Assembly (NCBI GenBank): GCA_028718185.1
Contig: JAQUMH010000002.1
Coordinates: 4,088 to 68,087, forward strand
Direction of reading: 5' to 3'
DNA length: 64,000 nt
DNA from: Elusimicrobiota bacterium
Lineage (GTDB): Bacteria > Elusimicrobiota > UBA8919
The position numbers and the translations under genes were made by a program. Positions 15,029 to 17,020 of this stretch are shown piece by piece. Numbering within the stretch: the first letter of the stretch is position 1; every line of letters begins with the position of its first letter. Below the pieces are notes generated by a model that was not told the DNA's origin, did no database searches, and was given only the letters and a program-made list of their open reading frames with translations.

Positions 15029-17020
15029 CTATCTGCCTTCCTGCTGTTGTTTCTGATAAAGTTCTATTAACGGCTGAGAAACAATAGAAGGTGCTTCTTC
15101 ATAGTGTGAAAACTTCATTTTAAAACTCCCGGCACCCTTTGTAATTGAACGCAAATCCGTAGCATAACTTGAAACTTCCGATAACGGGGCAGTTGCTATT
15201 ACTTTCTGTTTTTTACCAAGTCTATCCATACCCATAACCCTTCCTCTTCTTGCATTTAAATCACCCATAACTGCACCCATATAGTCATCAGGAATTACAA
15301 CCTCTAATTCAGCAATCGGCTCTAAAATAACAGGTTTTGCTTCCGTTACACCCTTTTTAAGCGCCATACTTCCGGCAATTTTAAAAGCCATATCTGACGA
15401 GTCAACTTCATGATAACTGCCATCGTACAACGTGACACGCATGTCGGTTACAGGATAACCGGCAACAACTCCCTGCTCCATCGATTCTTTTACGCCTTTT
15501 TCAACTGCCGGAATATAATTTCTGGGTATTCTGCCTTCACGAATGGCATTTACAAATTCAAATCCTTTTCCCCTTTCCATCGCCTCAACCTTAAGCCAGC
15601 AATCACCATATTGTCCCCGCCCGCCTGTTTGCCTTTTATATTTCCCCTGGACTTCTTTAGTCCCTTTAATTGTTTCTCTATAAGCAACTCTGGGCGGTTT
15701 AAGTTCAACATCTATTCCATATCTTTCTTTTACCCGTGCAATTGCAATTTCTATATGAAGTGCTCCCAACCCGGATAGAATCAATTCTTTAGTCTCTTTG
15801 TTATAGTATGACTTGATTGTAGGATCTTCACGCATCATTGATTGAAGTGCTGATGCAACTTTTTCTTCTTCACCTTTTGATTTAGGGAATACTGCTTTAC
15901 TGATACTCGGTTCCGGAAAAATTATAGTTTTAATCTTACTTATAGCCGATTCAGTCGCAGCAGTTACTGTTGCACGCGACTCATCACAAAGAATATCGTT
16001 TGTCTGAGTTTCCTTCAACTTTACCGAAACTATTATATCACCGGCTTCTGCTTCTGATATTTCCGTTTTCTTCTTACCCAACAATGTACATAACGTTCCC
16101 AATCTTTCTGTAGTACGGCGGTTGGCATTTTTAAGGTCCTGACCTTGTACAACTTTCCCCGAATATATTCTAAGGAAAGAAAGACTTCCCGTCTGCGGTT
16201 CAATAACACTTTTAAAAACTAGTGCTAACGCCTTGTCATAACCGGATATAATTTCCCCCTGCGGTAAAAAATCAGTTATGAAATTTGCAATCAAATCACA
16301 ACCAACATTTTTAGTTGCACTCCCGCACAAAACAGGAATTACAGTCTTTGCCTTAATACCTTTTTTTAGTCCTGAAAACAATTCATCTTTTGAAATTTCT
16401 TTACCTTCAAGGTATTTTTCAATAAGAACATCATCACTGGAAGATACAGCTTCAACATATTTTTCTTTATAGCTGTTAAATTCAGCAGGAACCGTATCGC
16501 TAATCAAAGAAATTACCTTAGAAAAACTTGAACTGGTACCATCCGGTAAAAAAACAGGTATTGTTAAGCCACTAAATTCTTTTAACTGTTTTACAGTCTT
16601 TGCAAAATCCACATTTTCTTTGTCCAATTTATTAATAAAAATTACTTTGGGTTTGTCGCAATTTTCCCAGAGATATTCAAATGTTGCATCAATATCTGTC
16701 GCGGCATCTAATACAAAAATTACCGAATCCGCTACACTAATAGCAGAAATCGCCTCACCGATAAAGTCAGAGTATCCCGGTGTATCCAGAATATTTATTT
16801 TTACACCGTTATTCTCAAACGACATTAGTGAAGTATAAATAGAGGATATTCTTGAAATTTCGTCAGGATTATAATCACTTGTAGTATTTCCTTCCTCCAC
16901 TTTCCCCAACCGGTTCGTTATCTTGGCATTAAACAAAATCGCCTCAACTAAAGATGTTTTTCCCGCTCCGCCGCTTCCTACAATCGCCACGTTCCTGATT
17001 TTTTCTTTAGCATAATTCAT
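15029..17020 (-). CDS. elongation factor G paralog (EF-G-like translational GTPase) with an atypical switch II
   Basis: 663 aa. G1 is GSGGAGKTSL, G3 is DTPGYSDF (canonical DTPGHVDF) and G4 is NKLD. EF-G domains II-V are recognisable (RIYSGKV..., GQYG...). Confidence 0.75.
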   Translation of the reverse strand: MNYAKEKIRNVAIVGSGGAGKTSLVEAILFNAKITNRLGKVEEGNTTSDYNPDEISRISSIYTSLMSFENNGVKINILDTPGYSDFIGEAISAISVADSVIFVLDAATDIDATFEYLWENCDKPKVIFINKLDKENVDFAKTVKQLKEFSGLTIPVFLPDGTSSSFSKVISLISDTVPAEFNSYKEKYVEAVSSSDDVLIEKYLEGKEISKDELFSGLKKGIKAKTVIPVLCGSATKNVGCDLIANFITDFLPQGEIISGYDKALALVFKSVIEPQTGSLSFLRIYSGKVVQGQDLKNANRRTTERLGTLCTLLGKKKTEISEAEAGDIIVSVKLKETQTNDILCDESRATVTAATESAISKIKTIIFPEPSISKAVFPKSKGEEEKVASALQSMMREDPTIKSYYNKETKELILSGLGALHIEIAIARVKERYGIDVELKPPRVAYRETIKGTKEVQGKYKRQTGGRGQYGDCWLKVEAMERGKGFEFVNAIREGRIPRNYIPAVEKGVKESMEQGVVAGYPVTDMRVTLYDGSYHEVDSSDMAFKIAGSMALKKGVTEAKPVILEPIAELEVVIPDDYMGAVMGDLNARRGRVMGMDRLGKKQKVIATAPLSEVSSYATDLRSITKGAGSFKMKFSHYEEAPSIVSQPLIELYQKQQQEGR

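Follow-up and report, generated by a model that had tools for sequence, protein, structure and literature searches.

A probable EFG II (EF-G2-type) paralog of elongation factor G with tyrosine in the switch II motif, encoded in an Elusimicrobia genome

Introduction

EFG II is an ancient, fast-evolving paralog of elongation factor G (EF-G). In a 64-kb stretch of DNA from an Elusimicrobia MAG (64,000 nucleotides, hereafter the window), an EF-G homologue of 663 amino acids has Tyr at the place of the catalytic His of switch II, and a preliminary description of this locus regarded the replacement as exceptional among translational GTPases. The locus raises the question of whether the gene encodes an aberrant factor or an ordinary member of a known subfamily, and what such a protein might do on the ribosome. 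Here, membership in EFG II was judged from signature positions, profile scores and scores of the G domain against PDB chains.

Results and discussion

The gene and its product

The gene under study is located as follows:

15029..17020, minus strand: elongation factor G paralog, very probably of EFG II (EF-G2) type; intact ORF, 663 aa, ATG start

All five EF-G domains were identified by Pfam above the respective cut-offs (GTP_EFTU, EF-G_D2, EFG_III, EFG_IV and EFG_C). This agreed with the preliminary description, in which domains II–V were considered present and G4 intact (NKLD at aa 130-133). The NCBI record with the identical protein is entitled 'elongation factor G [Elusimicrobia bacterium]'. 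Among the NCBIfam models, NF009381 (PRK12740.1-5, an 'elongation factor G' subfamily) matched the protein from end to end and, at 789.7 bits, exceeded its cut-off of 583, while TIGR00484, the equivalog of canonical EF-G, gave 575.5 bits and fell short of its cut-off (659.4). Two models of EF-G2 proteins also remained below their thresholds: the EF-G2 equivalog NF009377 (527.7 bits; cut-off 890) and the Bacteroid EF-G2 model NF058620 (496.8 bits; cut-off 1000), whose match was split into three stretches. Judged from these scores, the window protein is no equivalog of either of these two EF-G2 lineages.

Other families of translational GTPases were also considered. LepA, BipA and RF3 were rejected, as their NCBIfam models scored 110-134 bits, far under the cut-offs. 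A distant similarity to Tet proteins could suggest a role in ribosomal protection like that of Tet(M) or Tet(O); however, the tet_protect model NF012153 reached 327.3 bits (cut-off 775) and the protein has domain IV loops of EF-G type, which makes an assignment to any of these four groups hardly tenable.

G-domain motifs and the catalytic column

The following motifs were located in the G domain:

16952..16978, minus strand: G1/P-loop GSGGAGKTS (aa 15-23), from direct translation and HMMER alignment
16838..16852, minus strand: G2/switch I RISSI (aa 57-61), from HMMER alignment
16763..16786, minus strand: G3/switch II DTPGYSDF (aa 79-86), from direct translation and alignment
16772..16774, minus strand: codon TAC of Tyr83, from direct translation
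16622..16633, minus strand: G4 NKLD (aa 130-133), guanine specificity motif
16313..16324, minus strand: G5 GSAT (aa 233-236)

The reported replacement of the switch II His by Tyr was upheld: DTPGYSDF was obtained by direct translation, and Tyr83 was placed by HMMER opposite the catalytic His87 of Thermus thermophilus EF-G. Only the codon had been guessed wrongly (tat; the actual codon is TAC). In the P-loop, G15-S-G-G was aligned with A19-H-I-D of T. thermophilus EF-G, so that Gly, Ser and Gly stand at the places of the EF-G-specific Ala19, His20 and Asp22, respectively. This P-loop had been called degenerate, which appeared to be too strong a word: the Walker A pattern GxxxxGK[ST] is fully satisfied, and only the EF-G-specific His and Asp are missing. 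In switch I, Ser60 replaces the Mg-coordinating Thr of RGITI (aligned with Thr64 of T. thermophilus EF-G), and Ser was found in this column in 187 of 199 relatives. All nucleotide-binding elements of the window protein are intact (Walker A GxxxxGKT, DxPG, NKxD and SAx), and the GTP-binding residues G20, K21, T22, P81 and G82 were conserved among the 199 relatives.

It could be argued that the gene is a canonical EF-G with a one-codon sequencing or assembly error, since TAC is one base from CAC, or that it is a decaying pseudogene. However, the catalytic column of the 199 relatives, which came from many phyla, contained Tyr in 175, Phe in 19, Asp in three, Cys in one and Glu in one, and His in none. 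The Tyr is also accompanied by changes of the P-loop, of switch I and of the domain II signatures, and nine syntenic orthologues in other MAGs possess the same motifs. A pseudogene is also at odds with the intact ORF and with the conservation of residues in domain IV and for GTP binding. The family-wide Tyr/Phe together with the co-varying signature residues ruled out both possibilities, and we consider their probability to be negligible.

Assignment to the EFG II subfamily

The type I signatures of EFG II were listed as Gly16, Leu25, Ser61, Thr291, Gly333 and Lys/Arg352 in 1WDT numbering (Margus, Remm and Tenson, 2011; PMC3150367, Table 1). Five of the six were exact in the window protein (G15, L24, S60, G315 and K334), and the sixth has Ser271 for Thr. 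In the 199 relatives, the corresponding columns contained G in 180, L in 174, S in 187, T in 160 (S in 31), G in 199 and K in 199. The majority residue at position 291 is Thr; the window protein has Ser, as do 31 of the 199 relatives. The G2 motif of EFG II is relaxed from RGITI to xxxSx (PMC3150367); RISSI fits this pattern, and the cores of G1, G3 (DxPG), G4 and G5 are kept. The switch II His is replaced (Tyr83), as in characterised EFG II members. In addition, the gene is not part of a str operon (rpsL-rpsG-fusA-tuf) and has scpB, scpA and trpS as upstream neighbours instead. When the N-terminal G domain was compared with PDB chains, the best score, 107.5 bits, was observed for M. smegmatis EF-G2, and 102.1 bits were obtained with B. 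thetaiotaomicron EF-G2; in the same comparison, canonical EF-G chains scored about 63-79 bits. It should be noted that the 2011 EFG II data set (PMC3150367) was assembled without Elusimicrobia.

On the basis of these signatures and scores, the gene very probably belongs, as a typical representative, to the bacterial EFG II (EF-G2) subfamily. Tyr in switch II is a hallmark of a known subfamily and has already been published, and the window protein is an ordinary member and no oddity. The NCBI name 'elongation factor G' should be refined to EF-G2-type paralog. The value of the locus as a discovery is small, as Tyr for His in switch II, a modified P-loop and a relaxed switch I have all been published as hallmarks of bacterial EF-G2. 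Moreover, the biochemistry and structure of GTPase-deficient EF-G2 proteins have already been described for Mycobacterium and Bacteroides.

Neither a canonical fusA nor a second EF-G-like gene could be identified within the 64-kb window, which would be consistent with a gene that encodes the only EF-G of the organism and hence its main translocase, whatever the mechanism. However, the window is a small part of the genome, and a single EF-G gene was always EFG I in 305 genomes (PMC3150367); a sole EF-G of this type is very improbable. A contig search of other genomes (best identity 77%) yielded 80 loci, all EFG II-type, with no EFG I among them.

Domain IV and the proposed role

Two loops of domain IV and the G' domain bear on the function of the protein:

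15605..15625, minus strand: domain IV loop 1 GGRGQYG (aa 466-472), identical to canonical EF-G
15395..15415, minus strand: domain IV loop 2 YHEVDSS (aa 536-542), identical to canonical EF-G

The tip loops of domain IV of EF-G reach the 30S A site. In loop 1, six of the seven residues were invariant in 199/199 relatives and R468 was present in 183/199; in loop 2, H537, V539, S541 and S542 were invariant in all 199 and D540 was found in 198. The window protein also retains the acidic, L7/L12-contacting helix of G' (YLEGKE...DEL). As the domain IV loops and the GTP-binding residues were conserved in the 199 relatives, selection appears to act on contact with the A site and on nucleotide binding.

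By analogy with the characterised homologues, the window protein would bind GTP and the factor site of the ribosome, and its ribosome-stimulated GTPase may be weak or absent. In the sequence, three groups of residues with which canonical EF-G hydrolyses GTP when triggered by the sarcin-ricin loop (SRL) are replaced: Tyr83 stands for the switch II His, Ser16 and Gly18 for the His and Asp of the P-loop, and RISSI for RGITI of switch I. The protein would most likely work beside canonical EF-G as a slow translocase independent of GTP hydrolysis, which could be useful under energy or carbon limitation. A parallel is the EF-G2 of B. thetaiotaomicron, which is reported (Han et al., 2022, EMBO J) to support slow translation independent of GTP and to be induced when carbon is limiting. 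We tentatively favor such a translocase as the best explanation, although its probability appears to be somewhat below even. In broader terms, the most likely role is that of an auxiliary factor with poor GTP hydrolysis, either a slow translocase or a brake on translation. The preliminary description had guessed at a factor with poor hydrolysis that still binds both GTP and the ribosome but does not serve as the main translocase. This guess seems reasonable, and it has already been published for homologues.

A second possibility is that the protein keeps a ribosome-dependent GTPase despite the Tyr and acts as a conventional, less efficient alternative translocase. T. thermophilus EF-G-2, whose switch II reads DAPGYGDF, is reported to hydrolyse GTP with an intrinsic activity higher than that of EF-G-1 and to make poly(Phe). 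Therefore, Tyr alone does not prove a loss of GTPase activity. The G' helix, the domain IV loops and the housekeeping-like operon context of the window protein also fit this possibility. On the other hand, its GSGGAGKT is closer to GPSGGGKT of the GTPase-deficient M. smegmatis EF-G2 than to GHAGSGKT of the Thermus protein, and the H88Y replacement nearly abolished the GTPase of M. smegmatis EF-G1. A retained GTPase is possible but, in our opinion, rather improbable.

The third possibility is a brake that does not translocate. M. smegmatis EF-G2 (Tyr98, GPSGG P-loop) shows no GTPase activity that depends on the ribosome and, under stress, traps ribosomes after translocation, and the window protein might likewise trap post-translocation, non-rotated ribosomes. 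M. smegmatis EF-G2 is the best PDB match of the N-terminal G domain (45/102 residues identical), and both proteins share a P-loop without His and Asp as well as the switch II Tyr. However, the domain IV tip loops are canonical and essentially invariant, which corresponds to a requirement of translocases, and a gene cotranscribed with trpS, scpA and scpB is not an obvious candidate for a stress-specific role. We regard a brake as unlikely.

Gene neighbourhood and expression

The neighbourhood on the same strand contains the following features:

17017..17020, minus strand: ATGA, 4-nt overlap of the TGA stop codon of scpB with the ATG start codon of EF-G2
17026..17031, minus strand: GAGGAG, putative Shine-Dalgarno-like site, 5 nt upstream of the EF-G2 start codon and within the 3' end of scpB
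17017..17544, minus strand: scpB, upstream neighbour (Pfam SMC_ScpB, E=2e-55)
17568..18293, minus strand: scpA (Pfam SMC_ScpA)
18278..19264, minus strand: trpS, tryptophanyl-tRNA synthetase class (Pfam tRNA-synt_1b)
14064..14996, minus strand: xylose-isomerase-like TIM barrel gene, 32 nt downstream (Pfam AP_endonuc_2)
20174..20201, minus strand: sigma-70-like promoter match TTGACA-16-TATAAT (12/12), a consensus match upstream of an M50 peptidase gene

Further downstream of the EF-G2 gene, galT-like and glgE-like genes are located. Translational coupling to scpB had been proposed for this locus. The ATGA overlap is real, but scpB was a neighbour in the nearest Elusimicrobia clade alone (nine loci) and no longer in more distant relatives. 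As it is confined to this clade, the adjacency is probably not functionally meaningful.

No terminator-like site could be found on the minus strand between 20200 and 12700, and a long transcription unit on this strand, with the EF-G2 gene in it, may begin at the promoter match at 20174..20201. When leaders of the T-box or riboswitch kind that would tie the operon to starvation were looked for, only a sub-threshold chance match was obtained. With regard to a starvation-induced role, a housekeeping-looking same-strand cluster behind a consensus promoter fits constitutive expression better. In other lineages, loci of Zixibacteria and Caldiserica likewise had a homologue of the TIM barrel gene downstream of EFG II, and EFG II genes recurred beside yebC-ruvC in five separate lineages.

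These observations allow a more speculative combination, in which an EF-G2 with probably poor GTP hydrolysis has been fixed, in this Elusimicrobia clade, in a housekeeping unit (M50 peptidase, trpS, scpA, scpB, EF-G2 and TIM barrel), is constitutively expressed and performs a large share of translocation in these slow-growing groundwater bacteria rather than serving as a back-up for starvation alone, and in which EF-G2 is a so far unrecognised partner of YebC-type translation factors. Such a combination is quite doubtful. If either the constitutive expression or the linkage to YebC or the TIM barrel protein were true, it would bear on how translation proceeds with less GTP under energy limitation.

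Comparison with known elongation factors

The window protein shares with EFG II as described previously (PMC3150367) the five-domain architecture, the signatures, the xxxSx form of G2, the core of G1, G3, G4 and G5, a location outside the str operon and the absence of the switch II His. The EFG II consensus of the P-loop is GhxxxGKT (PMC3150367), and the window protein has Ser at the 'h' position.

In contrast with the earlier statement that EF-G2 paralogs keep the His, it is absent from all three bacterial EF-G2 proteins with structural studies, namely those of T. thermophilus (DAPGYGDF; 1WDT), M. smegmatis (DTPGYADF; 9K0Z) and B. thetaiotaomicron (DCPGSDDF; 7UVP). Among the EF-G2 chains in the PDB alignments, only mitochondrial EF-G2mt/RRF2 keeps DTPGHVDF. 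The belief that every EF-G2 has the catalytic His should be corrected, as none of the 199 relatives surveyed possesses it.

M. smegmatis EF-G2 (9K0Z/9K10) resembles the window protein in having Tyr for the catalytic His, a P-loop without the SRL-contacting His and Asp (GPSGGGKT and GSGGAGKT, respectively) and a switch I in which RGITI is not conserved, and 45 of 102 residues of the N-terminal G domain are identical. It differs in G4 (TKLD versus the canonical NKLD here) and in length (709 versus 663 aa). B. thetaiotaomicron EF-G2 (7UVP/8DMF) has a P-loop of the GSxGxGKT type and a switch II without His, like the window protein, whereas it has Ser rather than Tyr (DCPGSDDF) and 718 aa. T. thermophilus EF-G-2 (1WDT/2DY1) is akin to the window protein in its length (665 aa), the Tyr of DAPGYGDF and the EFG II signatures, but keeps the P-loop His (GHAGSGKT versus GSGGAGKT). 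The G domain of the window protein is about 40-45% identical to that of any characterised EF-G2. Given this level of identity and the missed cut-offs of the EF-G2 equivalogs, transfer of function from these proteins is loose.

Canonical EF-G (EFG I, fusA; T. thermophilus 1DAR) is 40% identical over the full length and shares the domain IV loops, the acidic G' helix and domains III-V. Unlike canonical EF-G, the window protein lacks the catalytic His, the AHxD P-loop and RGITI, and has about 20 residues fewer in G'. Finally, mitochondrial EF-G2mt/RRF2 and the spirochaete-type recycling EF-G2 have the five-domain architecture and the label 'EF-G2' in common with the window protein. EF-G2mt/RRF2 retains AHIDAGKT and DTPGHVDF, both absent here; the window protein therefore lacks the canonical G motifs with catalytic His that characterise recycling-specific EF-G2 (mitochondrial RRF2/spdEFG2). 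These GTPase-active recycling factors belong to a different lineage, which was probably the source of the earlier statement that EF-G2 retains the His.

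The EF-G2 gene and its G motifs

The preliminary description had reported an EF-G paralog in which Tyr replaces the switch II His, with a degenerate P-loop, intact G4 and domain II-V signatures, and translational coupling to scpB. The features concerned are as follows.

15029..17020, minus strand: EF-G2 gene, ATG-started ORF, 663 aa
16952..16978, minus strand: G1/P-loop, GSGGAGKTS by direct translation
16763..16786, minus strand: G3/switch II, DTPGYSDF by direct translation

All five EF-G domains (GTP_EFTU, EF-G_D2, EFG_III, EFG_IV and EFG_C in Pfam) were detected in the window protein. 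In the HMMER alignment with the canonical EF-G of Thermus thermophilus (EF-G-1; 1DAR), catalytic His87 lies opposite Tyr83 (codon TAC), A19-H20-I21-D22 opposite G15-S16-G17-G18, and the Mg-coordinating Thr64 of RGITI opposite Ser60. G4 (NKLD) and G5 (GSAT) are both present. The scpB stop overlaps the EF-G2 start in ATGA, and a Shine-Dalgarno-like GAGGAG lies 5 nt upstream of the start. Since translation, the 1DAR alignment, NKLD and the ATGA overlap all bear it out, the original sequence observation was correct. Only the word 'degenerate' has to be dropped: the P-loop conforms to the Walker A pattern GxxxxGK[ST] and is missing no more than the His and Asp particular to EF-G.

Assignment to EFG II

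Bacterial EF-G proteins have been split into EFG I, spdEFG1, spdEFG2 and EFG II (Margus, Remm and Tenson, 2011; PMC3150367), with six positions at which the residue conserved in EFG II differs from that in EFG I.

Signature positions (1WDT numbering; PMC3150367) and the window protein
Position 16: EFG II Gly; EFG I Ala; window protein G15
Position 25: EFG II Leu; EFG I Thr; window protein L24
Position 61: EFG II Ser; EFG I Thr; window protein S60
Position 291: EFG II Thr; EFG I Ile; window protein S271
Position 333: EFG II Gly; EFG I Ala; window protein G315
Position 352: EFG II Lys/Arg; EFG I Gly; window protein K334

Five of the six residues match exactly and the sixth is Ser for Thr; the same pattern was found in 199 relatives aligned by MAFFT. 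Switch I (RISSI) fits the EFG II G2 pattern xxxSx (PMC3150367). In NCBIfam, the window protein passes the 'elongation factor G' subfamily model NF009381 (789.7 bits, cut-off 583) and fails the canonical EF-G equivalog TIGR00484 (575.5 bits, cut-off 659.4); under the specific EF-G2 models NF009377 and NF058620 it does not qualify as an equivalog. Tet protection protein, LepA, BipA and RF3 were rejected, all scoring far under their cut-offs. For the N-terminal G domain, the best PDB scores were obtained with two GTPase-deficient EF-G2 structures, 9K0Z of Mycobacterium smegmatis (107.5 bits) and 7UVP of Bacteroides thetaiotaomicron (102.1 bits), followed by T. thermophilus EF-G-2 (1WDT; 83.8 bits); canonical EF-G chains gave ∼63-79 bits.

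Over the full length, the window protein is 40% (BLASTP) or 43% (alignment) identical to T. thermophilus EF-G-1 and 42-47% to EFG II members from other phyla; therefore, the assignment rests on signature residues and profiles. By these, the protein has the tested characters of the bacterial EFG II (EF-G2) subfamily, and can be regarded as a new, unremarkable member from Elusimicrobia. In the 199-relative alignment, identities between EFG II proteins from different phyla are 42-47%, and those to EF-G-1 are 41-46%; full-length PDB searches consequently place canonical EF-G above true EF-G2 relatives. Judged from these alignments, EFG II is recognisable by signature residues, not by overall similarity. 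Identities this low fit the long branches that PMC3150367 describes for the subfamily.

Distribution of the switch II tyrosine

An identical protein, encoded on a MAG contig of 301 kb, is present in NCBI under the name 'elongation factor G [Elusimicrobia bacterium]'. Of the 120 closest database homologues, 105 had a G3 motif that a plain search for DxPG could locate; the residue after it was Tyr, Phe or, once, Cys, and never His. A survey of one genome per GTDB species listed 80 loci labelled Elusimicrobiota, Endomicrobiales, Clostridia/Bacillota, Ignavibacteria, Omnitrophota, Atribacterota, Zixibacteria, Calditrichaeota, WOR-3, Binataceae, Thermoleophilia, Chloroflexi and Caldiserica, among many labels; in every parsed protein, DxPG was followed by Y, F, D or E. 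In the MAFFT alignment, which comprised the 199 relatives (all 120 closest homologues included) and T. thermophilus EF-G-1, the His87 column held Y in 175 relatives, F in 19, D in three, C in one and E in one. With His in none of the 199, both a codon error and a shifted alignment, named beforehand as possible sources of the Tyr, were ruled out. Tyr at this position is neither an error nor a rarity.

Genomic context

The EF-G2 gene lies in a minus-strand series with short gaps or overlaps: M50 peptidase, trpS, scpA, scpB, EF-G2, xylose-isomerase-like TIM barrel, galT-like, glgE-like, GT4 glycosyltransferase and UDP-glucose pyrophosphorylase (UDPGP).

20174..20201, minus strand: perfect sigma-70 consensus TTGACA-16-TATAAT upstream of the M50 peptidase gene (consensus scan only)
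14064..14996, minus strand: xylose-isomerase-like TIM barrel gene, 310 aa, 32 nt downstream of the EF-G2 gene
8349..13952, minus strand: alpha-glucan and sugar-nucleotide gene set immediately downstream of the EF-G2/TIM barrel pair (GlgE-like maltosyltransferase, GalT-like uridylyltransferase, GT4 glycosyltransferase, UDP-glucose pyrophosphorylase)
20398..32976, minus strand: ORF, 4192 aa, with CBM_4_9, FN3, FlgD_ig/CHU_C-like and Ig-like domains
34261..35262, minus strand: PorV-like gene

The perfect promoter match, together with the lack of any minus-strand terminator-like site from there to 12700 (7.5 kb; consensus scan only), suggests a single long transcription unit from M50 through trpS, scpA, scpB, EF-G2 and the TIM barrel to the galT-like gene. 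Nine MAG loci of close Elusimicrobia (at least 68% identity) share synteny over the M50-to-glgE block, the GlgE-like and GalT-like genes included, whereas Endomicrobiales and more distant Elusimicrobia loci do not; the coupling to scpB is therefore lineage-specific and probably incidental. The 256-nt M50-trpS spacer (19265..19520, minus strand) contains several GC-rich, hairpin-forming inverted repeats in surroundings of 35% GC. No known RNA leader was found, and a T-box in the spacer was rejected because no Rfam family matches. The PorV-like gene nearby means that the 4192-aa ORF may encode a very large surface protein with a link to type IX secretion.

A TIM barrel homologue also directly follows EFG II in the nine close Elusimicrobia loci and in two Zixibacteria and one Caldiserica loci of the survey (L032, L034 and L039). 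NCBIfam gave no specific function for this gene, the best match being the IolO epimerase, below threshold. At eight surveyed loci (L010, L020, L030, L033, L039, L040, L063 and L070), EFG II is followed on the same strand by yebC and ruvC, at a distance of ∼30-200 nt; the yebC product belongs to the YebC/PmpR family (NF001030, 351.7 bits), and at L039 a TIM barrel gene stands between EFG II and the YebC/PmpR-family gene. These represent five separate lineages, because the EFG II proteins of L030, L040 and L063 are 83-92% identical and those of L033 and L070 89%. Recent work describes proteins of the YebC/TACO1 type as translation factors, and the adjacency could therefore be functional; yebC is absent from the window. 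Both adjacencies, with the TIM barrel and with yebC-ruvC, may deserve a statistical test. L030, L040 and L063 come from MAGs recorded as Marinifilum sp., Candidatus Desantisbacteria and 'bacterium'; given their similar EFG II proteins and neighbours identical in type, at least one label or bin is probably wrong.

Probable function and comparison with characterised EF-G2 proteins

The nucleotide-binding residues G20, K21, T22, D79, P81, G82, N130, K131, D133, S234 and A235 are intact and family-conserved. Opposite the L7/L12-contact region, the window protein keeps the acidic G' helix (YLEGKEISKDEL versus YLEGEEPTEEEL in Thermus). In domain IV, both tip loops (GGRGQYG and YHEVDSS) have the sequence of canonical EF-G and are essentially invariant in the 199 relatives. 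The switch II His, the P-loop His and Asp, and the switch I Gly-Ile-Thr are replaced. In canonical EF-G, these residues form the link to the sarcin-ricin loop (SRL) and the hydrolytic water. We tentatively favor, at somewhat under even probability, a protein that would bind GTP and the ribosome, hydrolyse GTP poorly or not at all, and work beside canonical EF-G as a slow, hydrolysis-independent translocase. No second EF-G-like gene occurs within the 64-kb window; as Margus et al. (PMC3150367) report that in the genomes they surveyed a lone EF-G gene is always EFG I, an accessory role would be expected.

M. smegmatis EF-G2 (DTPGYADF) has the same Tyr (Tyr98) and a GPSGG P-loop, is without ribosome-dependent GTPase, is positioned away from the SRL and, in the published model, would trap ribosomes after translocation when cells are stressed; in EF-G1 of this species, H88Y nearly abolishes GTPase activity. 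A similar brake is unlikely for the window protein, even with 9K0Z as its top G-domain match. Slightly less improbable is an active GTPase as in Thermus: T. thermophilus EF-G-2 (DAPGYGDF), which retains the P-loop His, has Tyr yet hydrolyses GTP and makes poly(Phe). For the slow translocase preferred here, the counterpart is B. thetaiotaomicron EF-G2 (DCPGSDDF, Ser for Tyr), which is reported to be induced by carbon limitation and to allow GTP-independent translation. These three sequences contradict the preliminary statement that EF-G2 keeps the His. Among the EF-G2 proteins compared, only mitochondrial RRF2/EF-G2mt (AHIDAGKT, DTPGHVDF) does so: the name 'EF-G2' spans two unrelated lineages, which was probably the source of the mistake. 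Published accounts of the missing His go back to 2007-2011, and structural and biochemical studies have followed up to 2026.
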